A DNA stretch of 64,000 nt, from contig CAZSQS010000001.1 of assembly GCA_964608995.1 (NCBI GenBank), positions 130,659 through 194,658 of the forward strand. The letters are read 5' to 3'. Positions within the stretch are counted from its first letter, which is position 1; every line of letters begins with the position of its first letter. Positions 2,110 through 23,723 of this stretch are shown piece by piece. Made by a program: the position numbers and the translations under genes. The notes under the pieces were generated by a model. That model saw only the letters and a program-made list of their open reading frames with translations. It was not told the origin of the DNA and did not search any database. The DNA comes from an uncultured Smithella sp. Its GTDB lineage: Bacteria > Desulfobacterota > Syntrophia > Syntrophales > Smithellaceae.

Positions 2110-3300
2110 TCAGTAAGGCGCCTCGATGAGGGTCTCGCCGATGGGCGCATCCGGGGATGCCGCTTGCGGATAAATATACAGCCGGTCGCCGGGTGAAATT
2201 TTTCCGCCGTTGGCGAGGTTGTTCCAGAGGTAGATCGCCCGCAGCGGGACGTTAAAGCGCGAGGCGATCGCCGTCAGGGTATCACCCCTTTTAACCGTGT
2301 AGGCGTTTTGTTCCTTTTGAGCCGCCCATTGACGCACGAGGTTGTCGTAGCGATTGGTAAATCCCGCCGATGACCCGTAAGGAACGCTCACATCATGGCG
2401 GCCCGGCGGCAGGAAATAACTGCGCAGCTGGGGATTGAGGTCGCGGATCTCTTTAAAATAGGTATTGGCCGCCTCGGCGATGATCTGCAGGGGAACCGCC
2501 TCCTGGGCGTCAACTGAAATCACCTCGAACCGGCGGGCCTCGTAAAGATCTTCCTTGGCCAGGATATAGCCGAAGCGGGACGGGTTGGACATAATAATCT
2601 TGGCCGCCAGAATGCGGAAAATGTATCGCTGGGTCTCCGGATAGAGGTGGAGTTTATAATAGTCGTTGACTTTTTGCACCAGCATTTCACCCCGCAGGCC
2701 ATCCTCACCCATGTTGTACGCTGCGGCGGCCAGTGTCCAGGAGCCGAAAAGGGTATAGAGTTCTTTTAAATACCGGGCGGCGGCCTCAGTGGCGGTGAAG
2801 ATGTTGCGGCGCTCGTCGATATGCGAATTGATGGTCAGTCCGTATTTTGCGCCCGTCGATTCAATAAACTGCCAGTAGCCCACCGCGCCCTTGCCGGAGG
2901 CCGCGTGGGTCAGTAGCGCGCTTTCTGCGATGGCGATGTATTTCAAATCATCTGGCAGGCCGTGCGCTTTGAAGACTTTTTCAATGTGCGGGAAATAGCG
3001 GTTGGCGCGTTTGAGCCACAAAATGATGCTGTCCGTGTTATCCAGAGATATCAGGAACTCGCGCTCCAGCCGCTCGCGCACGTCAGGGTTTTCAACCGGC
3101 ACCGGTTCTGCACAAAAGGTGATCTTGTCTTTGAGCTGGAGCCGCTCGATAATGACCGTGGCGGGGTGATGAAGCGTCAGAGAAGCGGCCCCGGCAGTCT
3201 GCGCACCGTCAAAGGCCGTCAGGCTGAACGAAGCGGCAACGAGCAATAGGAGGCTCTTCGTATGCAAAGCGCTCAATAGGCGAAACTTTTGCCATTTCAT
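2110..3300 (-). CDS. Lytic murein transglycosylase (MltD-like SLT domain + LysM)
   Basis: IAIAESAL...SGKGAVGYWQFIESTG...AAAAYNMGE SLT motifs; C-terminal YTVKRGDTLTAIASRFNV LysM. Confidence 0.92.
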   Translation of the reverse strand: MKWQKFRLLSALHTKSLLLLVAASFSLTAFDGAQTAGAASLTLHHPATVIIERLQLKDKITFCAEPVPVENPDVRERLEREFLISLDNTDSIILWLKRANRYFPHIEKVFKAHGLPDDLKYIAIAESALLTHAASGKGAVGYWQFIESTGAKYGLTINSHIDERRNIFTATEAAARYLKELYTLFGSWTLAAAAYNMGEDGLRGEMLVQKVNDYYKLHLYPETQRYIFRILAAKIIMSNPSRFGYILAKEDLYEARRFEVISVDAQEAVPLQIIAEAANTYFKEIRDLNPQLRSYFLPPGRHDVSVPYGSSAGFTNRYDNLVRQWAAQKEQNAYTVKRGDTLTAIASRFNVPLRAIYLWNNLANGGKISPGDRLYIYPQAASPDAPIGETLIEAPY

Positions 3301-10536: not shown

Positions 10537-10571
10537 TCTGAATGGGCCACAATTTATTTGAGAGTAGCGAT

Positions 10572-11906
10572 ATGAAAAAAAACAAGATCAGCCTCGCCGC
10601 TTTATTGGTATGCGTTTTCCTGTTTCCGGTTTCGAGTGTTTTTGGACAGACGCCTTTGAGCCTTGAGGACTGCATTATGCTTGGCCTCCAAAACAGCCCG
10701 GCGATGCGCAGCGCCGCCTCCGGCGTCAGGGCAGGCGACGCGCAAAAAAAAGAAGCCCTGACCGGTTTTTTCCCGGAGCTTCGCACATCCTACAGCTATA
10801 CCCGGCTCAATGAAGCACCCGAGTTGAAATTTCCGGGCATACCGCCATCCATTCCCGCCATGAATATTCCGGCAGGCGACCAAAATACGTATTTGTGGGC
10901 GCTCGAGGCCAGACAGCCGCTGTTTGCCGGTGGAAAAATTCTGGCCGGCTATCAGATAAGCGCGATTGTCCATGAGGCCTCACGCGTCAGCGCGAAAGCT
11001 CAGCGTCAGGAGGTGGTCTATGAAGTCAAGGCGGCCTATTTTGATGTCCTTCGCGCCAACAGGATACTGGAGACGGCCAGGCAGTCCGTAGAAATGCTGA
11101 CCCGGCACCAGGATGTGGCGGCCCATTTTTTTCAAGCGGGGCTCATTCCCAAAAATGATTTTCTGCGCGCCGATGTCGCGCTGGCCTTGGGCCAGCAGCG
11201 ACTGATCCGGGCCCAAAATGCGCTCGCGCTGGCCGGAGCGCGCCTCAACACGCTTCTGAAGCGCGATCCGTCCGAGCCGGTTTTGCTTGACGACATTCTT
11301 GACTATTCCCCCATGACGCAATCGTTTGATTCATCCCTGGCTGAGGCTCGCCAGAGGCGGCCGGAGCTTCTCCATGCAAAACTCCGCGCACAGATGGCCG
11401 CCAAACAGGTGGTGGCGGCCCGAAGCGAGTATTGGCCCAAGCTTCAACTGATTGCCAACTATTCCCGCTACGGCGATACGCCGTCGGTGTCCGGCAGTGA
11501 TTTGAGGGACGCCGAAAGCTGGTCGGTGATGGGAATGGCCAGCTGGACGTTTTGGGAATGGGGAAAAACCAAATTCCGCGTCGATGCCTCCCTGGCCGCT
11601 GAAAATCAGGCGATCGACGCCGTCGAGCAACTGGAGGATCACCTGCGGCTGGAGATCCTCAACGCCTATCTGCTGATCAGAGAGGCAGAAAGTCAGATTC
11701 GCGTTTCGGAAAAAGTCATTTTACAGGCCGACGAGAACTTCCGCATTTCCGAGGAGCGATACAAGCAGCGGGTGGCTGCGTCAACCGATGTGCTCGATGC
11801 GCAGACGATCCTGACCCGGGCAAAATTCGACTATGCCAACGCGCTGGCGGACTATGGTATTCAACAGGCCAGGCTTGAGCGGGCGATGGGAACCCTTGGG
11901 TTGTAA
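10572..11906 (+). CDS. TolC-family outer membrane efflux protein
   Basis: Signal peptide MKKNKISLAALLVC...; LSLEDCIMLGLQNSP, FPELRTSYSY, YWPKLQL, two OEP repeats. Confidence 0.93.
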   Translation: MKKNKISLAALLVCVFLFPVSSVFGQTPLSLEDCIMLGLQNSPAMRSAASGVRAGDAQKKEALTGFFPELRTSYSYTRLNEAPELKFPGIPPSIPAMNIPAGDQNTYLWALEARQPLFAGGKILAGYQISAIVHEASRVSAKAQRQEVVYEVKAAYFDVLRANRILETARQSVEMLTRHQDVAAHFFQAGLIPKNDFLRADVALALGQQRLIRAQNALALAGARLNTLLKRDPSEPVLLDDILDYSPMTQSFDSSLAEARQRRPELLHAKLRAQMAAKQVVAARSEYWPKLQLIANYSRYGDTPSVSGSDLRDAESWSVMGMASWTFWEWGKTKFRVDASLAAENQAIDAVEQLEDHLRLEILNAYLLIREAESQIRVSEKVILQADENFRISEERYKQRVAASTDVLDAQTILTRAKFDYANALADYGIQQARLERAMGTLGL

Positions 11907-11920
11907 AGGGGAGGTGCGGT

Positions 11921-12577
11921 TTGAACAGAAATGAAATGGATGCCCAGAAACGGACCCGGACGGCCGACAAGATCTTAACCGCGGCGCGCCAAACCTTTGC
12001 CGAATTCGGTTACAGCGGCACGTCTATGGACGAAATTGCCCGGCGCGCAGGCGTCAACAAGGCCACGCTTTACTACCAGATCGGCGACAAGGATACGCTC
12101 TATGGCGCCGTCATCCATTCAGTGATGGGCCATATCGCTAAAGGTGTCTCCGAGGTGGTGGCGCGGGCGCATGCGCCGGAAGAAAAACTTCGCGCCTATA
12201 TCGCCTTTATGGCCGACGCCATGGATCAAAATCCGGACTTGCCGCCCATCATGATCCGCGAGGTCGCCTCCGGCGGCGCGCATCTGCCGCGCCTGGCCGC
12301 CGAAGACATCGCCTCTGTTTTGACGGTGCTTATGGGGATTCTCGATGAGGGGAAAAAAAGAGGGGTCTTTGCCGACGTCGTTCCCTTTTTGCTTCACGCC
12401 ATGATTATGGGAACGACGCTGCTTTACAAACTGGGGACGCCGATCAAGGATCGGCAAATGTGGGTGCCGCGCGATCTCAAGGCGCGGGATAAAAAGATTA
12501 CGGGATCGCTGGGCGACGAAGTGGCGCGCCTGGTGCTTAAGGCGGTGAAAATAGAAACCGCATCGAAAACAGGTTGA
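11921..12577 (+). CDS. TetR/AcrR-family regulator (CecR-like position)
   Basis: ILTAARQTFAEFGYSGTSMDEIARRAGVNKATLYYQIGDKDTLY HTH; TTG start with GGAGG RBS. Confidence 0.93.
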   Translation: MNRNEMDAQKRTRTADKILTAARQTFAEFGYSGTSMDEIARRAGVNKATLYYQIGDKDTLYGAVIHSVMGHIAKGVSEVVARAHAPEEKLRAYIAFMADAMDQNPDLPPIMIREVASGGAHLPRLAAEDIASVLTVLMGILDEGKKRGVFADVVPFLLHAMIMGTTLLYKLGTPIKDRQMWVPRDLKARDKKITGSLGDEVARLVLKAVKIETASKTG

Positions 12578-12599
12578 TGATTCAACAAGGACAAACGCC

Positions 12600-13613
12600 G
12601 TGAAAAAAATAGTGGGAATAATCGTTCTGGGGCTCCTTTTGGTCAGCGTGGGGGCAGGGGTGTATTTTGGCCAGAAAAATAACCGGGCAGGCGAGCTTCT
12701 GTATTCCGGCACGATTGAGGCCACGGAGGTCACTCTGTCTTTCCAGGCGCCGGGCCGTGTGGCTGAGGTCTATGTCCAGGAGGGCCGTCGCGTGAAAAAA
12801 GGCGAGCTCCTGGCCGAGCTGGATCGCGCCGATTATGAAGCGCGCCACGCGCAGGCCCGGGCCAATCTGACCCGCGCTGAAAAAGCAAAACAACAGGCGC
12901 GCACAGCCCTGAATATCTATGAAAAAACACTTCCCGCCGAGGTCGCCCGCGCCGAAGCCGCGCTTGCCAGCGCAACGGATACGCTGGAAAACGCCAAAAA
13001 GAACTATCTGCGTTTTGAAGAATTATTTCAAAAAGGCGTCGTGTCGGAAAAAGAGCGCGACACGATGAAGCTAAGTTATGACCTCGCCGAGGCTCGCCTC
13101 GCCGAAGCGCAATCCCTTTTGCATTTAGCTAAGGGGAATCTGCCGCGCGCATTGGCGGCCAGGCAGGAGATTGAAGTTGCCGCCTCGCAAATTGAGGCGG
13201 CCCGGGCCGCCTTGCAGCAGGCGGCGGTTCATCTGGACTATACGCGGCTTTTATCGCCGCTTGATGGCGTGGTGACGAGCCGCGCCATTGAGCCTGGCGA
13301 AACCGTCGCTGTGGGGCGCGAAGTGATGACCCTTTCAGATCTTTCGCGGGTGGAGTTGAATATCTTTGTGGAAGAGACGCAAATCGGCCGAATTTCACCG
13401 GGGGCGAAAGCGCAGGTGACCATCGATACCTTCCCAGGGAAAGTTTATGAAGGCGTGGTGTCTTTCGTTTCACCCGAAGGCGAATTTACGCCGAAAATCA
13501 TACAGACGAAAAAGGAACGGGTGCGGCTGGTCTATCGCGTCAAGATCGCCATCGACAATCCGTCTTTGGAGCTTAAAACCGGAATGCCCGCCGACGCTGA
13601 GCTTAAACCCTGA
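12600..13613 (+). CDS. HlyD-family efflux adaptor (YbhG-like)
   Basis: N-terminal TM; SGTIEATEVTLSFQAPGRV, lipoyl halves, EGEFTPKIIQTKKERVRLVYRVK motif. Confidence 0.93.
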   Translation: MKKIVGIIVLGLLLVSVGAGVYFGQKNNRAGELLYSGTIEATEVTLSFQAPGRVAEVYVQEGRRVKKGELLAELDRADYEARHAQARANLTRAEKAKQQARTALNIYEKTLPAEVARAEAALASATDTLENAKKNYLRFEELFQKGVVSEKERDTMKLSYDLAEARLAEAQSLLHLAKGNLPRALAARQEIEVAASQIEAARAALQQAAVHLDYTRLLSPLDGVVTSRAIEPGETVAVGREVMTLSDLSRVELNIFVEETQIGRISPGAKAQVTIDTFPGKVYEGVVSFVSPEGEFTPKIIQTKKERVRLVYRVKIAIDNPSLELKTGMPADAELKP

Positions 13614-13626
13614 AAAAGAGGTGTCC

Positions 13627-14400
13627 ATGACCGCCTTGCCCGAACGACCCGCGTCGATGGTCAGCGTGCGCCACGTCTCCTGGCGCTACAAAGATGTTGA
13701 GGCCCTTGACGATATTTCTCTGGATGTGCCCAAAGGCAGTCTTTTTGGATTTGTTGGCTCCGACGGCGCGGGCAAATCCACCCTCTTGCGTTTGATTGCC
13801 ACACTGATGAAGCCCCGGCAGGGCAAAATCGTAGTGGATGGCCGCAACGTCGCCACCGAGGCGCGTTCGATCAAAAACATTCTCGGTTACATGCCCCAGC
13901 GATTCGGCCTGTATGCGGATTTGACCGTCGCAGAAAATTTTAATTTTTTTCTGGATGTCTTCGGTGTGGCCACCGCCTCCCGAAAAGCCATTCAAGAAAA
14001 GTATCTGGGGTTTTCCAATTTGCTGCCATTTGTTAACAGGCCCGCGGGGCAGCTTTCCGGCGGCATGAAGCAAAAACTGGGGCTGGCCTGCGTTTTGGCG
14101 CATGAGCCCCGGGTGCTGATTCTCGATGAGCCGACCAATGGTGTGGACCCCGTCTCGCGGCGCGAATTCTGGGATATCCTGCTTGGCATGAAAAAAGAAG
14201 GCATGACCCTCCTGGTGTCCACCGCGTATCTGGATGAGGCCAGGCTTTGCGACCAAATTGCGCTGATGCACCGGTCGGTCCTGCTCGATGTGGCGTCGCC
14301 CGACGTGCTGAGCGCGGGTTTTAAAACGTTGGAGGAAGCCGTTATTGCGCGTATTGTCGATGTAGATCAGGAGATTGAACATGACGCCTTCCTGTTCTGA
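13627..14400 (+). CDS. ABC transporter ATPase (YbhF N-half-like)
   Basis: Walker A GSDGAGKST, LSGGMKQ, LILDEPT; ATG 13627 preferred over the overlapping 13447 start. Confidence 0.92.
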   Translation: MTALPERPASMVSVRHVSWRYKDVEALDDISLDVPKGSLFGFVGSDGAGKSTLLRLIATLMKPRQGKIVVDGRNVATEARSIKNILGYMPQRFGLYADLTVAENFNFFLDVFGVATASRKAIQEKYLGFSNLLPFVNRPAGQLSGGMKQKLGLACVLAHEPRVLILDEPTNGVDPVSRREFWDILLGMKKEGMTLLVSTAYLDEARLCDQIALMHRSVLLDVASPDVLSAGFKTLEEAVIARIVDVDQEIEHDAFLF

Positions 14401-15136
14401 CGCCATCTGCGTCGAAAATCTGGAGAAACGTTTCGGAAATTTTATCGCGGTGAACAAAATCAGCTTTCAGGTGAAGCAAGGTGAAATCTTCGGCTTTCTG
14501 GGCGCCAACGGTTCCGGTAAATCCACGACGATCCGGATGCTGTGCGGTATTATGACGCCCACGTCGGGCGCGGGCCGGGTGGCCGGATTCGACATCGTCC
14601 GGCAGCCGGAAAGTGTCAAACAGGCCATCGGCTATATGTCGCAGAAATTTTCTTTGTATGAAGATTTAACGCCGTTTGAAAATCTGCGCTTTTACCTGGG
14701 CGTTTACAGTGTTTCTCCATCCTTGTGGACCGAGCGCATCGCGGGGGTGTTAAAGATGACACGGCTCGAGGAGGCGCGCCATCGGTTGACGCGGGAGCTG
14801 CCGCAAGGCCTGCGCCAGCGGCTGGCTCTGGGCTGCTCGCTTCTGCACCAGCCGAAAGTGTTGTTTCTCGATGAACCGACCTCCGGCGTCGATCCGGTCA
14901 CACGCCGGCGCTTCTGGGCCTTTATCGCGCAAATCGCCGGCAGCGGCACAACCGTTTTCGTAACCACGCATTACATGGATGAAGCGCAGTTTTGCGGGCG
15001 CATCGTCATGATTAACGCAGGCGACATTGTGGCTTCCGGAACGCCGCAGGAAATTATTGCATCCGCCTGCCCCGGCCGTCCCGAGGCCGATTTGAATGAC
15101 GCGTTTATCGCGCTGATGACGAGGTGCCCGTCTTGA
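14381..15136 (+). CDS. ABC transporter ATPase (YbhF C-half-like)
   Basis: GANGSGKST, LPQGLRQR signature variant, LFLDEPTSGVDP, TTHYMDEA; AGGAG RBS before ATG 14381. Confidence 0.92.
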   Translation: MTPSCSDAICVENLEKRFGNFIAVNKISFQVKQGEIFGFLGANGSGKSTTIRMLCGIMTPTSGAGRVAGFDIVRQPESVKQAIGYMSQKFSLYEDLTPFENLRFYLGVYSVSPSLWTERIAGVLKMTRLEEARHRLTRELPQGLRQRLALGCSLLHQPKVLFLDEPTSGVDPVTRRRFWAFIAQIAGSGTTVFVTTHYMDEAQFCGRIVMINAGDIVASGTPQEIIASACPGRPEADLNDAFIALMTRCPS

Positions 15137-16266
15137 ACCCGACGCGACTAAAAGCCATTCTCCGCAAGGAAGTCTTTCATCTTCTTCGAGACACCCAGAG
15201 TCTTTCTCTGGCTTTTGCCGTGCCGCTCGTTTTGATTGTCCTTTTCGGCTATGCGCTTTCCCTGGATGTGGATCAGGTGAAAACAGTTGTCGTGGATTCC
15301 GATCGCTCTTCGGCAAGCCGCGATTTCATCCGCCGCTTCGAGGCGTCAACATATTTTTCTGTTGATGGGTATCTGAGCCGGTCGAAAGATGCTATTGGCG
15401 TACTCGACCGCGACGAGGCGAAGGTCGTCCTCATCATTGGCCCGGATTTTGGAAAAAATCTTCAGGCGGATCGCGAAGCGCGCGTGCAGGTTCTCCTGGA
15501 AGGCAGCGACCCCAATTACGCAGGCATCGTCCGCGGCTACCTCACTGCGCTCGTCGAACAGTATAATCAGAAATTATTGGTCGAGTATTTAAACCGCCGG
15601 GGAATGGAACCCATTTCGCCGCCGGTGGAGGGCCGCATCCGCATCTGGTTTAACGAGGATCTCCAAAGCCGCAACTTCATCGTTCCGGGCATCATCGCCA
15701 TCATCATCATGATTGTGGGCGCGCTTTTGACGTCGCTCATCATCGCGCGCGAGTATGAGCAAGGCACGATGGAGACGCTCAAGTCCCTGCCGCTTAGCGC
15801 AGGCGAGCTTCTGCTGGGAAAGGCGCTGCCCTATTTTGGAATCGGTTTTGCCGATGTGTTGATCGCCATGCTGGGCGGGCAGATTCTTTTTGGCGTGGTG
15901 ATGAAAGGTTCTTTTGGGATCATGATGCTGGCCACCACGCTGTATTTGTGCGTGGCGCTGGCGTTGGGCCTCACCATCTCCACGCTGACGAAGTCGCAGC
16001 TTGTCGCCAATCAGGCGGCCATTTTAATCACCTACCTGCCGTCGGTGCTGCTTTCCAATTTTGTTTTCCCGATTGCCAACATGCCGAAGTTTCTGCAGGC
16101 CATCACGTATATCGTTCCGGCAAGATACTACATTGACATTCTGGGCGGCCTGTATCTGCGCAACACGAACTTAGCCTACCTGTGGCCGAGTCTGGCGGTG
16201 CTGGCCCTGATGGCCGCGGGGTTGACCGCCATCAGTTATCTGCTTTTGAAGAGGGAAGGGCTATGA
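15124..16266 (+). CDS. ABC-2 permease (YbhS-like)
   Basis: LRKE...LFGYALSLDV, IWFNEDLQSRNFIVPG, AREYEQGTMETL, C-terminal TMs. Confidence 0.92.
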   Translation: MPVLNPTRLKAILRKEVFHLLRDTQSLSLAFAVPLVLIVLFGYALSLDVDQVKTVVVDSDRSSASRDFIRRFEASTYFSVDGYLSRSKDAIGVLDRDEAKVVLIIGPDFGKNLQADREARVQVLLEGSDPNYAGIVRGYLTALVEQYNQKLLVEYLNRRGMEPISPPVEGRIRIWFNEDLQSRNFIVPGIIAIIIMIVGALLTSLIIAREYEQGTMETLKSLPLSAGELLLGKALPYFGIGFADVLIAMLGGQILFGVVMKGSFGIMMLATTLYLCVALALGLTISTLTKSQLVANQAAILITYLPSVLLSNFVFPIANMPKFLQAITYIVPARYYIDILGGLYLRNTNLAYLWPSLAVLALMAAGLTAISYLLLKREGL

Positions 16267-17384
16267 GCGCTCTGAGAATTCGGGAACTGGTGCGCAAGGA
16301 ATTTCTTCAGCTTTTTCGTGACAAGCGAATCCGGATGGTGCTTTTTGTGGCCCCCTTTCTGCAGATGCTGGTTTTCGGCTATGTGGTCAATTACGACATC
16401 CGCAACATTTCGATGGCGTTTCTGGACTATTCGCACACGGCTGAAAGCCGCCGTCTGGCCGAGGCTTTCACGGGCGGCCGCATTTTTGCGATCAAGCAGT
16501 ATTTAAAGGATGAGCGCGAGCTCGAAGAGGCGCTCCTGCGGGGAAAGGTGGATATGGCGGTGGTGGTGGGCCCCGATTTTGCAAATCGTATCCGCAAAGG
16601 CCAAAGCGCCGCCGTGCAGATTCTCGCCGATGGCTCGATGAGCAATATGGCCTCGATGCGCATGGCCTACACGATGAGCGTTCTGGAAAAATACAACCGC
16701 GAGATGCTCAGGGAGCTCTATCCGATGTCCATGTCGTATGGCCGAGTGGATGCGCGCCTTCGCGCCTGGTACAACCCGAACCTCGACAGCCGGCACTTTT
16801 TTGTTCCGGGAATTGTCGCCTTCCTGGTCATGCTGTTGTCGCTCCTTTTGACGTCAATTGCGATCATCCGGGAAAAAGAAGCGGGCACGATGGAGCAGTT
16901 GATCGTGACCCCGATAACGGCGGTTGAACTGATCATCGGCAAGACCATCCCCTATATTATTGTGTCTCTGGGGCAAATGATGGCGGTCATTGTGGTGGCG
17001 ATCCTCTGGTTTGATATTCCGCTTCGGGGCAGCATTCCCTTGCTGCTTTTCGCCTCGTGTCTGTTTTTACTGAGCACACTGGGCATCGGGCTTTTTATTT
17101 CGACCGTCTCCACGACGCAGCAGCAGGCGATGATGGCCACCTTCATGATCATCCTGCCCTTTTTTATGCTGAGCGGTTTTGTTTTCCCTATCGCCAATAT
17201 GCCCGAGGGAATCCAGTGGCTGACGCTTTTAAACCCGCTTCGCTATTTTCTGGTGATTATCCGCGGAATCTTTCTCAAGGGGGTGTCGCTGGAGGTGCTC
17301 TGGCCGCAGTTTCTGGCGCTGGCCATTTTGGGCATCATCGTTTTTTCCGGCGCGATGCTGCGCTTTAAAAAGCGTTTGGATTAA
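16263..17384 (+). CDS. ABC-2 permease (YbhR-like)
   Basis: ATGA overlap with the previous stop; WYNPNLDSRHFFVPG, IIREKEAGTMEQLIVTP. Confidence 0.92.
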   Translation: MSALRIRELVRKEFLQLFRDKRIRMVLFVAPFLQMLVFGYVVNYDIRNISMAFLDYSHTAESRRLAEAFTGGRIFAIKQYLKDERELEEALLRGKVDMAVVVGPDFANRIRKGQSAAVQILADGSMSNMASMRMAYTMSVLEKYNREMLRELYPMSMSYGRVDARLRAWYNPNLDSRHFFVPGIVAFLVMLLSLLLTSIAIIREKEAGTMEQLIVTPITAVELIIGKTIPYIIVSLGQMMAVIVVAILWFDIPLRGSIPLLLFASCLFLLSTLGIGLFISTVSTTQQQAMMATFMIILPFFMLSGFVFPIANMPEGIQWLTLLNPLRYFLVIIRGIFLKGVSLEVLWPQFLALAILGIIVFSGAMLRFKKRLD

Positions 17385-17457: not shown

Positions 17458-18180
17458 TTATTCCTTTACTTCTGGTGGCGCCTCGGAGACGTCCAGAAGC
17501 TCCACTTCATAGATCAGCAGGCTTCCGCCCGGAATGACGGGCGGATTTCCCATGTCGCCATAGGCGGTCTCCGGCGGGCAGTAAAATTTTGCCTTGCCGC
17601 CGACTTTCATGAGTTCCACACCTTCCGAAAAACACTGCAGGATTTGTCCCACAATATACTCCGAGGGCTTCTCGCGTTTGTAAGTGCTGTCAAATTCCTT
17701 TCCATTGATAAACGTGGCCGTGTAGTGAACCTTAATTTGCTTGCCTTCGGTGGGTTTGGCTCCGGCGCCCGCCGATATTTCCTGAAAAACAACACCCGAG
17801 GCGGTTTTTTTTGCGCCTTTTTCCGAGGCGGCTTTTTTGAGATACTCAAGCGCGGCCGCTTTGCGCTTTTCACGGCGCTCATCGATAATTTTGCGAAGTT
17901 GCGGCATGCTGGCGTCCGGTTCCGTGGCCAGTTTGTTGCCCGCCACCGCATCGGCCAGCCCCATTTGAACATATTTCCCCTCTTCGGGTGTCAGTTCCAG
18001 CTGGTAGGCGTCTCGATGCATAAACACTCCCAGCGAATAAAAGGCCTTCTCGTCGTCGTTTTTCAGAACGATCTCTGAGGCCTTGTCCTTTGCCTCCTTC
18101 GCAGAAGGCGCAGGAGATTGAGAGCAGGCGCACAAAACCGAGAGGGCGACTACAATCATCATCATGTTCCGGATCATCAT
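17458..18180 (-). CDS. FKBP-type peptidyl-prolyl isomerase (FkpA/Mip-like), lipoprotein signal
   Basis: LSVLCAC lipobox; VKVHY-like IKVHYTATFINGKEFDSTYKR; MKVGGKAKFYCPPETAYG...IPGGSLLIYEVELL. Confidence 0.93.
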   Translation of the reverse strand: MMIRNMMMIVVALSVLCACSQSPAPSAKEAKDKASEIVLKNDDEKAFYSLGVFMHRDAYQLELTPEEGKYVQMGLADAVAGNKLATEPDASMPQLRKIIDERREKRKAAALEYLKKAASEKGAKKTASGVVFQEISAGAGAKPTEGKQIKVHYTATFINGKEFDSTYKREKPSEYIVGQILQCFSEGVELMKVGGKAKFYCPPETAYGDMGNPPVIPGGSLLIYEVELLDVSEAPPEVKE

Positions 18181-18332
18181 TTTTTTTCATCCTCCTTAAG
18201 ATCAATAGGGTATTTTTATCTAAAATAAAAACGCGTTCAAGTCATCATAAATTTCAAGTTCCTGCAACAGATTCCTGTCCCCGCGGGGCGTTGACCCTCC
18301 TGGAAAATATCCGACGGCTTTTTATGGAGGGT

Positions 18333-18365
18333 AAAAAAATCCGGGTGGATTTTCATCCACCCGGA
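18333..18365 (-). terminator. Intrinsic terminator of hydrolase copy 1
   Basis: Minus strand CCGGGTGGAT-GAAA-ATCCACCCGG followed by ATTTTTTT. Confidence 0.85.
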
Positions 18366-18421
18366 AAGGGTTTCTTCCTCTGAAAGTTCAACCAGAGGAT
18401 AGGGTTCAAGGTTAACCGGGG

Positions 18422-19438
18422 CTAGATGCCGGAGGTTCTCCACGTCAAAGCGTCGCTCGGTCTCTTGATGTAAGTCTTCCAGCGGGTGTCGCCATCGAGA
18501 TACGTCTTCTGGAAGGCCAGGGCCAGAGCGCCTGCGTTCGGTGCGAAAACCGTATCCGGCCCGCCCCAATCAAAGTGACCGGCAATCGAGATGACATAAA
18601 GCGCTTTTGGAATACCGCGCGGAATCGCGTTGTAAACGCTTTCCGACTGATACATGCCGCCCAGAACCGTCAAATCCGTTGCGCCGTTCATGAGCAGCAT
18701 CGGGCACTTGGTGTAGCGGCCGCTTTTGTAAATACTGGTTGCGGACAGGTTGTGGCCCGCCAGAGACATGGCCGTTTTCGGACCGGTTTTGGCTGCGTTA
18801 ATCCAGGTGGCGCCGCCGCCCATCGACCAACCCAACAACCCGATTCTGCTGGTGTCGAGTTTGCCCTTAAGCGCATGGCCGTTGCGGGTGTTGAGTTTCT
18901 TGAGCGCATTGTAGGCGCTCCACTGCAGGGAGGCTCTCAGATCCACGGTATCCATCGTGGTGGCCGAATCGCAGTTCACATAAACGATGCCGTGCGAGGC
19001 AAAGAAGGGGCCCCAGTCGGAGTTCGCCGCCTGTGTTCCCATGAAGGGCTGCATGAAGATGAGGGCGGAGAAAGGCGGCGTGGCGTTTTGCGGAATGTAG
19101 ATGGACGCGCTGGCTGTAAATCCGGGGAAGTCACTGGTTCTGCTGGAGCCGTAAGGGCCGCTTTTGCTTGTCGATTTTGGTGTATCATCGCGGCAGATCG
19201 CGCCTGCGGGGCATCCGGGAATCGATCCGGACGAGCTCGATGAACTGGACGAACTCGATGAGCTCGTGGAGTACCACCACGACGAACCTGACGACGAACT
19301 GGACGAACTCGATGAACTGGAGGAACTGGTGGAGAACCACCACTGGGCATCACAGGTTGACGCGGTTGCGCCCGCTAAAAACAGGCACACAAACGACAGA
19401 ATTAAAAAACTCGTAACTGACTTTCTTTTCATAACCAT
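18422..19438 (-). CDS. Secreted PETase/cutinase-like (polyesterase-lipase-cutinase family) alpha/beta hydrolase, copy 1, with WW-polySer N-terminal tether (homologous start 19432)
   Basis: Signal peptide; WGPFFASHG, GKLDTSRIGLLGWSMGGG nucleophile elbow, NGATD (Asp), AGHF (His), LDGDTRW. The motifs are collinear with Ideonella PETase (WGPRLASHG, GKVDTARMGVMGWSMGGG, MDNDTRY), recalled from memory. Confidence 0.88.
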   Translation of the reverse strand: MVMKRKSVTSFLILSFVCLFLAGATASTCDAQWWFSTSSSSSSSSSSSSSGSSWWYSTSSSSSSSSSSSSGSIPGCPAGAICRDDTPKSTSKSGPYGSSRTSDFPGFTASASIYIPQNATPPFSALIFMQPFMGTQAANSDWGPFFASHGIVYVNCDSATTMDTVDLRASLQWSAYNALKKLNTRNGHALKGKLDTSRIGLLGWSMGGGATWINAAKTGPKTAMSLAGHNLSATSIYKSGRYTKCPMLLMNGATDLTVLGGMYQSESVYNAIPRGIPKALYVISIAGHFDWGGPDTVFAPNAGALALAFQKTYLDGDTRWKTYIKRPSDALTWRTSGI

Positions 19439-19648
19439 TTCCCTTCCGTTGAATGATAAGAGTTTTTTTGTTTTCGCGGCCCTTGCACTCTAATCCTCAG
19501 ATGGCAAAGTTCGCCCCTTTACGCGTTGTCTGTTTTCGGCCTTGGCTGACCCCCTGTTTCCAATAGTCCCTTTATCTCAAATAATAAAGTGGTAACGCTG
19601 TTTCGTTTTTACTATTTCCTGCAAATATTTAAATATATTTTATAAAAT

Positions 19649-19664
19649 TGCATGAAGTGTGCCA
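19649..19664 (-). promoter_or_regulatory. Sigma-54 (-24/-12) promoter of hydrolase copy 1
   Basis: Minus strand TGGCACACTTCATGCA = GG-N10-GC with TGGCAC; about 210 nt upstream of the start. Confidence 0.8.
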
Positions 19665-19760: not shown

Positions 19761-19813
19761 GTGTTTCGTAAAAATTAAAAATGGGACACAAAATGGGACA
19801 CATTGTGGGGCGT
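19761..19813. promoter_or_regulatory. Candidate enhancer (UAS) array for a sigma-54 activator, copy 1
   Basis: GTGTTTC at 19761; ATGGGACAC at 19781 and 19793 (12-bp period); degenerate third unit at 19805. Confidence 0.6.
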
Positions 19814-19880
19814 TTTATCCGGACGCAGGCATTTCCCGACCTTTCAGTGAGGCTTGTCACGCAAAAAATTGTCACAAAGT

Positions 19881-19915
19881 AAAAAAATCCGGGTGGATGT
19901 GAAATCCACCCGGAT
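19881..19915 (-). terminator. Intrinsic terminator of hydrolase copy 2
   Basis: Minus strand ATCCGGGTGGAT-TTCAC-ATCCACCCGGAT followed by TTTTTTT; homologous to 18333-18365. Confidence 0.85.
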
Positions 19916-19965
19916 GGGGTTTATACCTCTATATGAAAGCAGAGGGGTTGTAAGGTTGACCGGGT

Positions 19966-20958
19966 CTAGATGTCGGAGCTTCTCCACGTCAAGGAATCGA
20001 GCGGTCTCTTGATGTAAGTCTTCCAGCGGGTGTCGCCATCGAGATACGTCTTCTGGAAGGCCAGGGCCAGAGCGCCTGCGTTCGGTGCGAAAACCGTATC
20101 CGGCCCGCCCCAATCAAAGTGACCGGCAATCGAGATGACATAAAGCGCTTTTGGAATACCGCGCGGAATCGCGTTGTAAACGCTTTCCGACTGATACATG
20201 CCGCCCAGAACCGTCAAATCCGTTGCGCCGTTCATGAGCAGCATCGGGCACTTGGTGTAGCGGCCGCTTTTGTAAATACTGGTTGCGGACAGGTTGTGGC
20301 CCGCCAGAGACATGGCCGTTTTCGGACCGGTTTTGGCTGCGTTAATCCAGGTGGCGCCGCCGCCCATCGACCAACCCAACAACCCGATTCTGCTGGTGTC
20401 GAGTTTGCCCTTAAGCGCATGGCCGTTGCGGGTGTTGAGTTTCTTGAGCGCATTGTAGGCGCTCCACTGCAGGGAGGCTCTCAGATCCACGGTATCCATC
20501 GTGGTGGCCGAATCGCAGTTCACATAAACGATGCCGTGCGAGGCAAAGAAGGGGCCCCAGTCGGAGTTCGCCGCCTGTGTTCCCATGAAGGGCTGCATGA
20601 AGATGAGGGCGGAGAAAGGCGGCGTGGCGTTTTGCGGAATGTAGATGGACGCGCTGGCTGTAAATCCGGGGAAGTCACTGGTTCTGCTGGAGCCGTAAGG
20701 ACCACTCTTGCTTGTTGATTTTGGTGTATCCTCGCGGCAGATCGCGCCTGAGGGACATCCGGGAATCGATCCCGACGAACTCGATGAGCTCGATGAACTG
20801 GTGGAATACCACCACGTTGAACCTGATGATGAGCTCGATGAGCTGGAGGAACTGGTGGAGAACCACCACTGGGCTTCACAGGTTGACGCGGTTGCGCCTG
20901 CTAAAAACAGGCACACAAACGACAGAATCAAAAGGTTTTTAACTGACTTTCTTTTCAT
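19966..20958 (-). CDS. Secreted PETase/cutinase-like alpha/beta hydrolase, copy 2
   Basis: Same motifs as copy 1; catalytic core identical; shorter Ser runs; different C-terminal tail (RPLDSLTWRSSDI versus RPSDALTWRTSGI). Confidence 0.88.
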   Translation of the reverse strand: MKRKSVKNLLILSFVCLFLAGATASTCEAQWWFSTSSSSSSSSSSGSTWWYSTSSSSSSSSSGSIPGCPSGAICREDTPKSTSKSGPYGSSRTSDFPGFTASASIYIPQNATPPFSALIFMQPFMGTQAANSDWGPFFASHGIVYVNCDSATTMDTVDLRASLQWSAYNALKKLNTRNGHALKGKLDTSRIGLLGWSMGGGATWINAAKTGPKTAMSLAGHNLSATSIYKSGRYTKCPMLLMNGATDLTVLGGMYQSESVYNAIPRGIPKALYVISIAGHFDWGGPDTVFAPNAGALALAFQKTYLDGDTRWKTYIKRPLDSLTWRSSDI

Positions 20959-21188
20959 AAATTTTTCCTTCCATCTGAAATAATAAATGATGAATTTCCC
21001 CTTTGCGCAGGCCTCGCTCTCTCATCCTTCAGATCGCCGGGGCTGCCCCTTCTACGCGTTGCCCTCTCAGGTTCCAGGCAATATCAATCGCTATTTTGAC
21101 TGATCTTACCAATAAACAATCTCAAACAATCCGCATGCAGAATTGTTGTGATTGCTCACTGGCCTATCTTATTATTGTCAATATTGTA

Positions 21189-21204
21189 GGCACGATGTAT
21201 GCCA
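21189..21204 (-). promoter_or_regulatory. Sigma-54 (-24/-12) promoter of hydrolase copy 2
   Basis: Minus strand TGGCATACATCGTGCC = GG-N10-GC; same offset to the upstream repeat array as in copy 1. Confidence 0.7.
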
Positions 21205-21300: not shown

Positions 21301-21353
21301 GTGTTTCATGAATGTCTAAAATGGGACACTTCGTGGGACACAATTTGAGACAT
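21301..21353. promoter_or_regulatory. Candidate enhancer (UAS) array, copy 2
   Basis: GTGTTTC at 21301; ATGGGACAC 21321, GTGGGACAC 21333, TTGAGACAT 21345 (12-bp period). Confidence 0.62.
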
Positions 21354-21560
21354 TTTATTGCGGGTCTTGCAGATTAGACTGTTGATTTGAACGAGATGTT
21401 GCGATTCCATTAAAACTGAAAAAGCGGCCATTGAAAAATTTCAACTGGCAAATGAGTCTCAAATATGTTTCAGTTTGTTGCACTTAAAAATATTAGAAAA
21501 CATAACGAAGGCCGAACGAAAACCCTCTTTTCAGGCGGTAAAAAGGAGAATTCAAAGAAC

Positions 21561-23723
21561 ATGGCCATCAATGTCAAGGAAGAAGCGCCATTATTACAGA
21601 TTGACAGTTTTTCCCTGAAAGATAATACGGAAAACATATCATCCGGATGGGATAAAATGCTGGTGGATGCCATCGACCCCTCTTCGGTCAGCATTCAGGA
21701 TCTCGTCAGCATTGTGCTTTGGTTTCTGGAAAAAACACAGGACGAATGGACGCGGTTCGTCAACGGGGCCGATGATCTGGAGAGTTCCGTCATTCCCGAT
21801 CATATTGCCGAGGCCTGGGGGCGGTGCCGCAGCCGCCGGATGGACCCTTTCATAACGGAGGCGCAAAATCAGGTTTTAACCGGGCAGGCGCTCGAGGCGC
21901 TTCTGACGCAAAACAGGACCCTGATTGAAATCAGCAGGCCCTTCATCACCAAACTTTTCCAATGCACCAATACCACAAGCTTTGGCGTGGCGCTTTTCGA
22001 CCGCGAGGGCTATCTTCTGGACGTTCAGTCGGATGAGCGGTTTGTCTCGGACAACGACAAAACCCGATGGATCTGCGGGGCGCGCTGGGCGGAGCAGGAC
22101 GCCGGGAATAATTCCATCGATTACGTGCTGCGTTATGGAAAGCCGATCCAGGTCCTGTGCACGCAGCATTACCTTCAGCGCCTCAAGGAGGTCACGGCGT
22201 CAAGCGCGCCCATTCATGATCCCGAAGGCGTTTTAATCGGCGGCGTGGCGCTGACCACCTTTTATTTCGGTACGCATCCCCACACACTGGGCATGGCGGT
22301 GGCCGCCGCCCAGGCCATTGAAAATGAGTTGCGCATCACGAAGGCCTTTGCCGAATGCCGGCGGGCTTTTTTTCAGGCGGATATGGCCTACGGCCTGCAA
22401 AAGGCGATTACCGACGCCATGACGGATGCGATTGTCGCCGTAAATACCGAAGGGCGGATCACGGCGATCAATCCCCGCGCCGAACATCTTTTTGGCCTGG
22501 ATTGTGAGGATGTGAAGGGAAAACATCTTCTGGATATCTATCCCGGCGCGGATAACCGCTATTTCTGGGATATTCTGCGCTCCGGCCAGGCCGTAAGCGA
22601 TGCGGAAGTGCAAATCCGCACCCTTTCGGGGAGGGGGGATTATACGCTGACGTGCAATCGCATCCTGTCTTCCGATGGCGCCGCTATCGGCAAAGTGCTG
22701 ATCTTTTCGGAAATTCGGAAAATCAAGTCTCTGGTCAACCGGTTTTCCGGCGCCAGAGCCAATTTCAAGTTTTCCGACATTCAGGGGAAAAACGAGAAGT
22801 TTCGGGCTCTGATCGATCAGGCGGGGATGATTTCAAAAAGCGCCTCCAATGTTTTGCTCCTTGGAGAAAGCGGCTCCGGCAAGGACATTCTGGCGCAGGC
22901 CATTCATAACGAAAGCCCCCGTGCAGACGGGCCCTATATCGCCATCAACTGCGCGGCCATTCCCCGCGATCTCATTGCCAGTGAGCTGTTCGGTTATGAT
23001 GAGGGCGCGTTTACCGGTTCGCGGCGCGGCGGCAATCAGGGAAAATTCGAACTGGCCGACGGGGGCACGATTTTTCTCGATGAAATCGCGGAAACCCCAC
23101 TGGAGCTTCAAGCGGCGCTTCTGCGCGTCATTGAAGACAAGTGCGTGGTCCGCATCGGCGGCAATTCCAACCGGGTGGTGGATGTCCGGATTATCGCCGC
23201 CACCAATAAGGACCTCTTCGAGGAGGTTTCCCGGGGCAATTTCCGCAAGGATTTGTATTTCCGGCTCAACGTGTTCAATCTTCATTTGCCGCCGCTTCGC
23301 GAGCGGACGGACGATATTGCGCTTTTAGTGGAGATATTCATGAAGAAGTATGCGTCCAAAATGGGGAAGTCCCTTCGCGGGGTGGATGATCGGGTGTGGG
23401 AGGTTTTTTTGCAGCATGCCTGGCCGGGCAATATCCGCGAGCTTCAAAATGTCGTGGAGCGCATGGTCAACTTTGCCACATCGGAGCGGTTAACGTATGA
23501 CCTTATTCCGCCCGAGATTACGGGGGTGGCTCGAAAATCCTACGGCAAACTCGATCTGGAATCGCCCGTGGAAACGGAAAAAAGGATGATCCGGCACATG
23601 CTGACGCTTCGCTACAGCCGCCAGAAAATTGCAAAACAGCTTAACGTGTCGCGCGCGACGCTGTTTCGGCGAATGCGCAAATACGGCCTGCTGGAAAAAG
23701 ACTTTCCACAAGATGCGCCCTGA
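21561..23723 (+). CDS. Sigma-54-dependent enhancer-binding protein, GAF-PAS-AAA+-Fis HTH (AcoR/DhaR-like)
   Basis: IAEAWGRCRSRRMDP GAF start, LLLGESGSGKD, ASELFGYDEGAFTGS, LADGGTIFLDEI, RKDLYFRLNV, WPGNIRELQN, IAKQLNVSRATLFRRMRKYG; AAGGAG RBS before ATG 21561. Confidence 0.95.
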   Translation: MAINVKEEAPLLQIDSFSLKDNTENISSGWDKMLVDAIDPSSVSIQDLVSIVLWFLEKTQDEWTRFVNGADDLESSVIPDHIAEAWGRCRSRRMDPFITEAQNQVLTGQALEALLTQNRTLIEISRPFITKLFQCTNTTSFGVALFDREGYLLDVQSDERFVSDNDKTRWICGARWAEQDAGNNSIDYVLRYGKPIQVLCTQHYLQRLKEVTASSAPIHDPEGVLIGGVALTTFYFGTHPHTLGMAVAAAQAIENELRITKAFAECRRAFFQADMAYGLQKAITDAMTDAIVAVNTEGRITAINPRAEHLFGLDCEDVKGKHLLDIYPGADNRYFWDILRSGQAVSDAEVQIRTLSGRGDYTLTCNRILSSDGAAIGKVLIFSEIRKIKSLVNRFSGARANFKFSDIQGKNEKFRALIDQAGMISKSASNVLLLGESGSGKDILAQAIHNESPRADGPYIAINCAAIPRDLIASELFGYDEGAFTGSRRGGNQGKFELADGGTIFLDEIAETPLELQAALLRVIEDKCVVRIGGNSNRVVDVRIIAATNKDLFEEVSRGNFRKDLYFRLNVFNLHLPPLRERTDDIALLVEIFMKKYASKMGKSLRGVDDRVWEVFLQHAWPGNIRELQNVVERMVNFATSERLTYDLIPPEITGVARKSYGKLDLESPVETEKRMIRHMLTLRYSRQKIAKQLNVSRATLFRRMRKYGLLEKDFPQDAP

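Follow-up and report, generated by a model that had tools for sequence, protein, structure and literature searches.

This study concerns two tandem genes in a 64,000-nt stretch of DNA from an uncultured Smithella sp. (positions 130,659 to 194,658 of contig CAZSQS010000001.1, assembly GCA_964608995.1; the whole stretch is called the window below). Both genes encode PETase-like serine esterases, predicted to be secreted, in which an unusual tether of two short Trp clusters, each followed by a run of serines, separates the signal peptide from the catalytic domain. The start of this tether is invariant among all the tethered genes that we found, Trp clusters recur at the C-terminus of other members of the family, and the ordinary linkers of the family are free of Trp. 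We suggest that Trp clusters carried on a flexible spacer act as a lipid-free interfacial anchor, a proposal whose support is entirely in silico and which we regard as having an even chance of being right.

Architecture of the tethered esterases

The two genes lie in tandem on the minus strand and are 95% identical, the sole gaps in their alignment being 3 + 3 Ser. Copy 1 (18422..19432 including the stop codon) encodes 336 aa; its reading frame formally opens at 19438, and the true start is likely the second ATG, at 19432, since copy 2 and all homologues begin MKRKS or MERKS. A ribosome-binding site (GGAAGG) is found 5′ of the ATG-GTT-ATG in which this codon lies. Copy 2 (19966..20958, 330 aa) has the same architecture. 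The stored gene call for these proteins (P0001, approximately 18422-19054 and 19966-20598) has 210 aa and starts at an internal MQPFMG, so that everything from the signal peptide through the tether and the Cys loop is missing, together with the first 50 residues of the domain (the first strands); the gene of a tethered relative described below, L002, is likewise called from MQPYMG (P0011).

Read from the N-terminus, and on the minus strand throughout, copy 1 consists of a signal peptide (MKRKSVTSFLILSFVCLFLAGATASTCDA, 19346..19432) which signal peptidase I is predicted to cleave off after Ala29 (A·QWW; here and below a dot marks a putative cleavage site), a first tip QWWFST at the predicted mature N-terminus (19328..19345), a run of 13 Ser (19289..19327), GSS (19280..19288) and the second tip WWYST (19265..19279; 19265..19288 with GSS), a run of 12 Ser (19229..19264), the junction GSIPG (19214..19228) and CPAGAICR (19190..19213), a Cys-x5-Cys loop. 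The corresponding parts of copy 2 are the signal peptide (20872..20958), QWWFST (20854..20871), ten Ser (20824..20853), GST and WWYST (20800..20823), nine Ser (20773..20799), GSIPG (20758..20772) and CPSGAICR (20734..20757). The coordinates of the tether parts of both copies were checked by translating the exact sub-ranges. An earlier, sequence-only reading of this DNA had placed a tether with poly-Ser and two WW motifs here in both copies, with six more Ser in copy 1, and the translations and the alignment gaps agree with it on each point. No other plausible coding frame in the 64-kb window has WW[FYW] or a Ser run of at least 6. The expected frequency of WW plus an aromatic residue in a tail of 15-45 aa is 2-6 × 10^-4, and to judge from the sequence the tether motif is not a product of chance.

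The sequence-only reading had also counted a Cys pair as the end of the tether, and in this respect it has to be amended: CPxGAICR belongs to the catalytic domain, of which it forms the first conserved element in >100 homologues, and it is modelled with a predicted local distance difference test score (pLDDT) of >90. In most of these homologues, which are mostly untethered, CP[SA]GAICR directly follows the signal peptide (YA·QTCPSGAICR, FA·ASCPSGAICR); I79 and R81 are near-invariant, and in the AlphaFold2 (AF2) model CPAGAICR reaches a pLDDT of 94. On this alignment, the true insertion is the segment between the signal-peptidase site and the CPxGAICR loop. AF2 gives residues 27-67, the tether, a pLDDT of <50 and rises to >90 from about residue 71, and a Pfam search returned PF12740 as the sole match, with no second domain and no carbohydrate-binding module (CBM) or polyhydroxyalkanoate-depolymerase-type module in the tether. 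The tether is thus predicted to be disordered, and the two results bear out the earlier remark that it contains no folded binding module.

The nearest relatives of the window genes come from Smithella or Smithellaceae metagenome-assembled genomes (MAGs), and the tether is found again in P0002 (locus L001; STCEA·QWWWFST-S7-GGTTTG-CPSGAICR), in L006 (GATFSSEA·QWWW-S8-GSTSG-CPSGAICR) and in L002 (STVNA·QWWT-S9-TSSTSSS-TAG-GSSNG-CPSGAICR), the last with an in-frame stop. This TAG lies in the Ser/Thr run of L002 (TCA TCA TAG GGA TCC, within 3085-3160; Smithella MAG SRP263991_co7_550) and could reflect a pseudogene, an assembly error or read-through. A29-Q30-W31-W32 is invariant in the five tethered genes, which represent at least three Smithella-type genomes and are 59-67% identical over the N-terminal ~130 aligned residues, with variation in the signal peptide, in the residue next to WW, in the ST that follows and in linker length. 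The unit WW(F/Y)ST, as first proposed, therefore does not hold: ST is not kept (QWWWSSS in L006, QWWTSS in L002), and for this reason the unit is better described as QWW, or WW plus an aromatic residue. Only the window genes have a second tip, GSSWWYST, which seems to have arisen from the first by internal duplication.

AF2 places a helix at residues 6-24 of the signal peptide. L006 and L002 keep A·QWW but lack the Cys upstream of the first tip (STC[DE]A), and the putative lipobox, A-S-T-C in the window proteins and F-S-T-C in P0002, has Thr at −1. Because A-Q-W-W is invariant and the upstream Cys is not, and because of this Thr, we infer that signal peptidase I cleaves between Ala and Gln and leaves Gln-Trp-Trp at a free N-terminus. 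The same site is indicated by the −3/−1 rule and by the register of A·QTCP and A·ASCP in the untethered homologues. An N-terminal Gln can cyclise to pyroglutamate, by which the terminal charge is lost, and this could also happen to the mature esterases.

At the DNA level, the Ser residues of the runs are encoded by five codons (TCG 13, TCA 10, AGT 9, TCC 7 and AGC 5), and to this extent the sequence-only reading was right to conclude from mixed codons that the runs are no simple microsatellite. They are periodic nevertheless: since the codons follow the order (AGY TCN TCN)n, Tandem Repeats Finder detects period-9 arrays and each Ser run is longer in copy 1 by exactly one 9-nt unit, the runs form a minisatellite-like 9-nt repeat and not a mono- or trinucleotide one, and their lengths appear to have changed by whole 9-nt units. 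Plus-strand reading frames antisense to the tethers (19164..19493 and 20708..20983), which would encode (DEL)n, were dismissed. They mirror the (AGY TCN TCN)n arrangement, and it is the minus-strand frame that leads on into a domain for which hundreds of homologues exist.

In the alignment of the paralogues, 52 of 1011 columns differ, and the gaps in the two Ser runs account for 18 of these. None of the 52 lies outside the first 300 nt and the last 50 nt; the central 660 nt (nt 300-960) are identical. As the upstream regions are only 72-88% alike, the identical center indicates gene conversion restricted to the catalytic core, with the signal peptide and tether drifting independently; both Trp motifs have been retained in both copies despite this drift of the 5′ part. 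The source organism occurs in metagenomes of anaerobic digesters and wastewater. In Logan contigs from four wastewater or bioreactor metagenomes (four studies), both tethers are reproduced without indels and show one difference at most, in most cases none. No variation in Ser-run length was seen in the contigs of these four runs, although such contigs drop rare variants and low-frequency slippage is possible.

A phmmer search with the 48-aa tether against 1.84 billion representative proteins (E ≤ 0.001) found no true relative in other families, a result that should be read with the caveat that clustering at 50% may hide tethered members behind untethered representatives, as may truncated gene calls. 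The single match, P0121, was rejected as a repetitive, unrelated translation. A metagenome scan with the N-terminal 84 aa gave 599 pattern matches, none of which was confirmed, and a scan with the five-gene alignment returned only untethered relatives and the C-tipped P0016 locus described below. A word-indexed protein search with a shortened tether peptide, in itself uninformative, gave no candidate with three 5-mers in common. Judged by these searches, the device is lineage-restricted.

Terminal Trp clusters and a possible lipid-free anchor

Trp clusters are not confined to the N-terminus in this family. Five out of 136 C-termini run more than 8 aa past the domain; two of them are folded extensions (a second hydrolase domain and a ricin-type lectin), and the remaining three, all of them short tails, finish with a Trp cluster and an Arg. 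One belongs to a Smithellaceae cluster of 12 members around P0016 (P0016/P0139-148) that ends in …NTASLPSTGGTTPDYPWWYWWR (also given as …TTPDYPWWYWWR), with three members ending instead in …LPSTGTTPPPSSCLWWQWWCR (SSCLWWQWWCR). The others are P0114, which ends in …TPTPDYPWWYWWR (DYPWWYWWR), and P0038, which ends in …NTSPIDPACRWWFCR (ACRWWFCR); P0038 is an unrelated singleton from a gammaproteobacteria-like lineage, with Microbulbifer-/Ketobacter-like nearest relatives. Trp tips thus appear to have been gained separately at the C-terminus within the family. The tails stop 1-2 residues after the Trp cluster (WWYWWR, WWQWWCR and WWFCR), so that there is no room for a transmembrane helix, which together with a basic tail follows the signature motif in sorting signals of the PEP-CTERM, GlyGly-CTERM or LPXTG type. 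Another C-terminal tail, rich in Trp, Asp and Lys (…STWDRGYSIWDWDGSKWNFDSSKWKDWFKN), was seen in a 657-aa two-domain protein from a Bacillota MAG (L027).

The ordinary linkers of the family look different. There is not a single Trp in the 390 aa of 21 other N-terminal linkers, which are of the Ketobacter type (MSQVPPTDPGDDP) and of lipoprotein types. Among further N-terminal segments, P0071 has an extension (approximately residues 25-70) with …NMGNDCSKCHGDKYS… ahead of its linker, where CxxCH resembles a c-type haem attachment site, and L032 (2518-3000) has a linker of VTGGRDTS(Q/E) tandem repeats.

In 13 homologues, a canonical lipobox Cys followed by a low-complexity linker of 15-30 residues stands exactly at the position of the tether; the signal peptides align with those of the window proteins, and 10 of the 13 have D/E at +2. 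Asp or Glu at +2 of lipoproteins is a sorting signal in some bacteria. These homologues (P0056, P0065, P0076, P0077, P0082, P0085, P0102, P0111, P0119, P0133, P0134, P0137 and P0138) are predicted lipoproteins with the linker before CPxGAICR. Because they carry a lipobox Cys and a linker at the same place, tethering seems to be a recurrent solution in the family, in which one layout returns: a hydrophobic end (lipidated Cys or Trp cluster), a flexible hydrophilic leash and a catalytic domain. The proposal of the sequence-only reading that the Trp-Trp-aromatic peptides are themselves the functional element hereby gains support at the comparative level, namely from AQWW in five of five genes, the recurrent C-terminal clusters and the Trp-free linkers.

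We suggest that the PETase-like serine esterase is exported by Sec and that signal peptidase I cuts at A·Q to give a mature Gln-Trp-Trp-Phe start, which a disordered spacer of ~40 residues (Ser13/10, Trp-Trp-Tyr, Ser12/9, Gly-Ser-Ile-Pro-Gly) would join to the domain at the CPxGAICR loop. The Trp, Phe and Tyr side chains would partition into the interface of a membrane or other hydrophobic surface, with the hydrophilic poly-Ser as a flexible leash, and the enzyme could in this way be held reversibly on the envelope or vesicles of its producer, or on greasy substrate particles. Duplication of the tip would bring the total to four Trp and raise the avidity; the count equals that of the C-terminal WWYWW and WWQWW of the relatives, and four Trp in both window genes as in the four-Trp C-tips fits selection for a given avidity. 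Neither the N-tether (pLDDT <50) nor the C-tail of P0016 (pLDDT 50-62) is confidently docked by AF2, as expected of a free leash.

By summed Wimley-White interfacial free energies, a window tip contributes about −4 kcal/mol and a four-Trp C-tip −7 to −8 kcal/mol, with the two window tips together in the range of the latter. A free energy of −7 to −8 kcal/mol is approximately the contribution of one myristoyl chain, and by this estimate the two tips should suffice for reversible attachment. The sequence-only reading had named plastic, wax and lipid droplets as candidate surfaces, but attachment to the envelope of the producing cell is no less probable. As to which surface would be bound, we lean slightly toward the envelope of the producer over the substrate, because of the lipoprotein homologues with an anchor at the same position and because of the terminal Arg of the C-tips.

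Tritrpticin and indolicidin are Trp/Arg-rich interfacial peptides, and CRWWFCR and CLWWQWWCR of the relatives look like disulfide-closed versions of such Trp/Arg peptides. The engineered anchor peptides used on polyester hydrolases (LCI, PMC12529122) and cyclo-RRRWFW (PMC5343580) are likewise short clusters of Trp or other aromatic residues, often with Arg, which attach to membrane interfaces or the surface of polymers and need no folded domain. In engineered material-binding peptides, binding is driven by aromatic residues (PMC12529122), and the cyclic Arg/Trp hexapeptide is strongly membrane-active (PMC5343580). Unlike these free antimicrobial or engineered peptides, the tips of the family are a natural appendage of an enzyme, and the N-terminal tip of the window proteins differs further in having no Arg and a poly-Ser run behind it.

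Poly-Ser linkers and lipobox anchoring have been described in secreted degradative enzymes of Saccharophagus degradans, Cellvibrio japonicus and Teredinibacter (PMC2386152), in agreement with the earlier statement that poly-Ser linkers are established in secreted polymer-degrading enzymes of Saccharophagus and Cellvibrio. The poly-Ser linker systems and the window proteins have in common that they are secreted degrading enzymes of Gram-negative bacteria with a Ser spacer between an attachment element and the catalytic domain, and that attachment to a surface has been proposed. However, the known linkers join folded modules (CBM and glycoside hydrolase) or a lipidated Cys, whereas the window tether would join a Trp cluster of 3-4 residues to the domain, and the host is an anaerobic Smithella-like deltaproteobacterium and the enzyme a PETase-like esterase. 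The lipoprotein anchors of the 13 homologues share with the window tether both the position, from signal peptide to CPxGAICR, and the order of hydrophobic end, linker and domain, but a canonical lipobox is missing from the window proteins, their relatives can dispense with the Cys, and the anchor would be one of side chains and not of acyl chains. In a non-exhaustive literature search we found no description of a natural enzyme with its attachment element reduced to a terminal Trp cluster on a leash. From these comparisons, we regard the tether as a variant of a known modular design.

Alternative explanations

The tips could instead be a neutral by-product, in which a slippage-prone low-complexity spacer grew by 9-nt duplication and functionless WW was copied along. 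We consider this unlikely, although it would account for the 9-nt periodicity and for paralogue lengths that differ by 9-nt units, for a second tip that looks like an internal duplicate of the first, for the fact that most homologues function without a tether, and for the in-frame stop in one tethered gene. It accounts poorly for the invariance of AQWW in five genes whose identity over the same N-terminal region is otherwise 59-67%, for Trp clusters that arose separately at C-termini, for the lack of Trp in other linkers, and for a tether of the same length (and near-exact sequence) in the metagenomes of four studies. Alternatively, QWW and WWxWW-R could be a recognition signal for a system of secretion, sorting, vesicle loading or modification, such as O-glycosylation of the Ser runs or a lineage-specific sorting enzyme. 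Ser-rich linkers are typical glycosylation substrates, the tips stand at extreme termini, the N-tips and most C-tips are confined to Smithellaceae, Gln is invariant at +1, and Arg is the invariant last residue of all C-tips. Yet a similar motif occurs at either end and also internally (tip 2), which would be unusual for a sorting signal, and the transmembrane segment and basic tail that PEP-CTERM and GlyGly-CTERM signals carry are missing. One of the C-tips, that of P0038, moreover comes from a gammaproteobacteria-like lineage, and no candidate sorting gene adjoins the esterase genes. Taken together, we find such a signal improbable.

Two further explanations seem to us less probable still. 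Cys27 of ASTC·DAQWW could be diacylglyceryl-modified after a signal peptidase II cut, with WW merely adjacent to it; the signal peptide aligns with those of the 13 lipoprotein-type homologues (MKRKS...LLLTGF[IV]CSC[DE]T), and the Cys takes up an equivalent position, with D/E after it as in 10 of the 13. The PROSITE/DOLOP lipobox, [LVI][ASTVI][GAS]-C, needs [GAS] at −1, whereas the −3 to −1 residues here are A-S-T or F-S-T, and the Cys is absent in L006 (GATFSSEA·QWWW) and L002 (STVNA·QWWT), both of which keep A·QWW. On the lipobox pattern and the lack of conservation of the Cys among orthologues we ruled this reading out, and the chance that we leave to it is slight. About as faint is the prospect that the aromatic tips act within the molecule, by folding into the substrate cleft as a pseudo-substrate, autoinhibitor or folding aid. 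A leash of ~40 residues could reach the active site, and PETase-like clefts bind aromatic rings, but the tips are found at both ends of the fold; autoinhibition in particular gains no support from AF2, because neither model, of the N-tether or of the P0016 C-tail, docks the tips with confidence.

The interfacial anchor is the explanation that we favor, and several points weigh against it as well. The evidence for it is in silico and comes from few genes. Only five N-tethered genes were found, all in one bacterial family, which argues for a single evolutionary origin, and one of the five (L002) has an in-frame TAG inside its Ser/Thr run. As the search of 1.84 billion representatives gave no true relative on other protein families, the tether is not a widespread module. 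By the above estimate a single tip, at about −4 kcal/mol, is a weak binder alone; the enzyme may stay in the periplasm, and the difference in Ser-run length between the paralogues fits relaxed constraint on the length of the spacer.

More tentatively, we speculate that Trp tips on leashes of Ser, Thr, Gly and Pro have evolved as a gene-encoded substitute for lipidation or a binding domain that can be used at either terminus, with more than one origin in the family, and that the tip was doubled in the window genes for avidity. The Cys of the window proteins and of P0002 would then be a relic at the old lipobox position, left by a switch from a lipid to a Trp anchor. We think that this wider scenario is possible, but somewhat less likely than not to be correct as a whole.

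Catalytic domain, genomic context and implications

The catalytic alpha/beta-hydrolase domain of copy 1 (18425..19213, minus strand) was identified by Pfam, alignment and Foldseek. The two proteins match PF12740, which is polyethylene terephthalate (PET) hydrolase-like, with 98.6 and 98.3 bits against a cut-off of 28 (5e-28 for copy 1). The nucleophile elbow G-W-S203-M-G-G (18815-18832), Asp253 (18674-18676) and His286 (18575-18577) are invariant in an alignment of 49 sequences and form a Ser-Asp-His triad. In the AF2 model, built with these 49 sequences, the domain has a pLDDT of >90, and Foldseek matched the model to IsPETase (6kuo, E 3.5e-21, TMt 0.86); among solved structures, the polyester hydrolase PE-H (6sbn, E 3.6e-25) and IsPETase variants come closest. 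Fold, elbow, triad and signal-peptide secretion are thus common to the window proteins and the PETase/cutinase-like hydrolases of PF12740, 6kuo and 6sbn, and we take the domain to be a new member of a known family.

The identity to solved PETases, however, is ~26-29%, and no member of the clade to which the window proteins belong is found among the solved structures. Unlike 6kuo and 6sbn, the members of this clade have a CPxGAICR loop at the N-terminus, and no Cys adjoins their catalytic Asp. An invariant AGHN (18749-18760) replaces the A-P-W-D of PE-H, which is the site of the 'wobbling' Trp of a substrate subsite. Because of the exchange of this Trp for AGHN and the lack of the Cys beside Asp, hydrolysis of PET or other polyesters should not be assumed. 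LGG-x-GQS is invariant in the clade after the catalytic Asp. The CPxGAICR loop and AGHN in place of the subsite Trp define an uncharacterized clade of PF12740, which is abundant in Smithellaceae, Ketobacter, Microbulbifer and clostridia.

Both genes are preceded by sequences of the sigma-54 promoter type (−24/−12) on the minus strand, assigned by consensus only: TGGCACacttcaTGCA for copy 1 (19649..19664; TGGCAC-N5-aTGCA, with GG-N10-GC) and TGGCATacatcgTGCC for copy 2 (21189..21204; TGGCAT-N5-gTGCC), which would give 5′ leaders of ~215-230 nt in both copies. A direct repeat of two GTGTCCCATTTT units (GTGTCCCA, 19778..19802, minus strand) lies ~120 nt upstream of the copy 1 promoter, and a related repeat pair lies upstream of copy 2 (approximately 21322-21340); we infer that these repeats are candidate binding sites for an activator. 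A gene for a sigma-54 enhancer-binding protein (PAS + Sigma54_activat + HTH) is transcribed divergently (21465..23723, plus strand), and the tethered homologue in L001 has the same activator neighbor and a matching promoter (2762-2777). G+C-rich inverted repeats with a T-run after copy 1 (18331-18373) and copy 2 (19879-19921), both on the minus strand, are likely intrinsic terminators, and the small open reading frames that span them (18237..18569 and 19844..20113) are probably not genes. Downstream of copy 1 follow a gene for an FKBP-type prolyl isomerase with a lipoprotein-like N-terminus (LSVLCAC; 17458-18180, minus strand) and, beyond it, an efflux cluster (OEP/TetR/HlyD/2xABC/2xABC-2; 10542-17384, plus strand).

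The comparative pattern is striking, and few genes stand behind it. If the proposed function is correct, the Trp tip would rank as the smallest natural module by which a secreted hydrolase is known to attach to a surface, an anchor that needs neither lipidation machinery nor a folded domain and that is portable to either terminus. It would then be relevant to engineered hydrolases of polyesters and plastics, to which synthetic anchor peptides are added for better adsorption, and to the question of how energy-limited syntrophic anaerobes in digesters keep their exoenzymes, and the products of these, near the cell.

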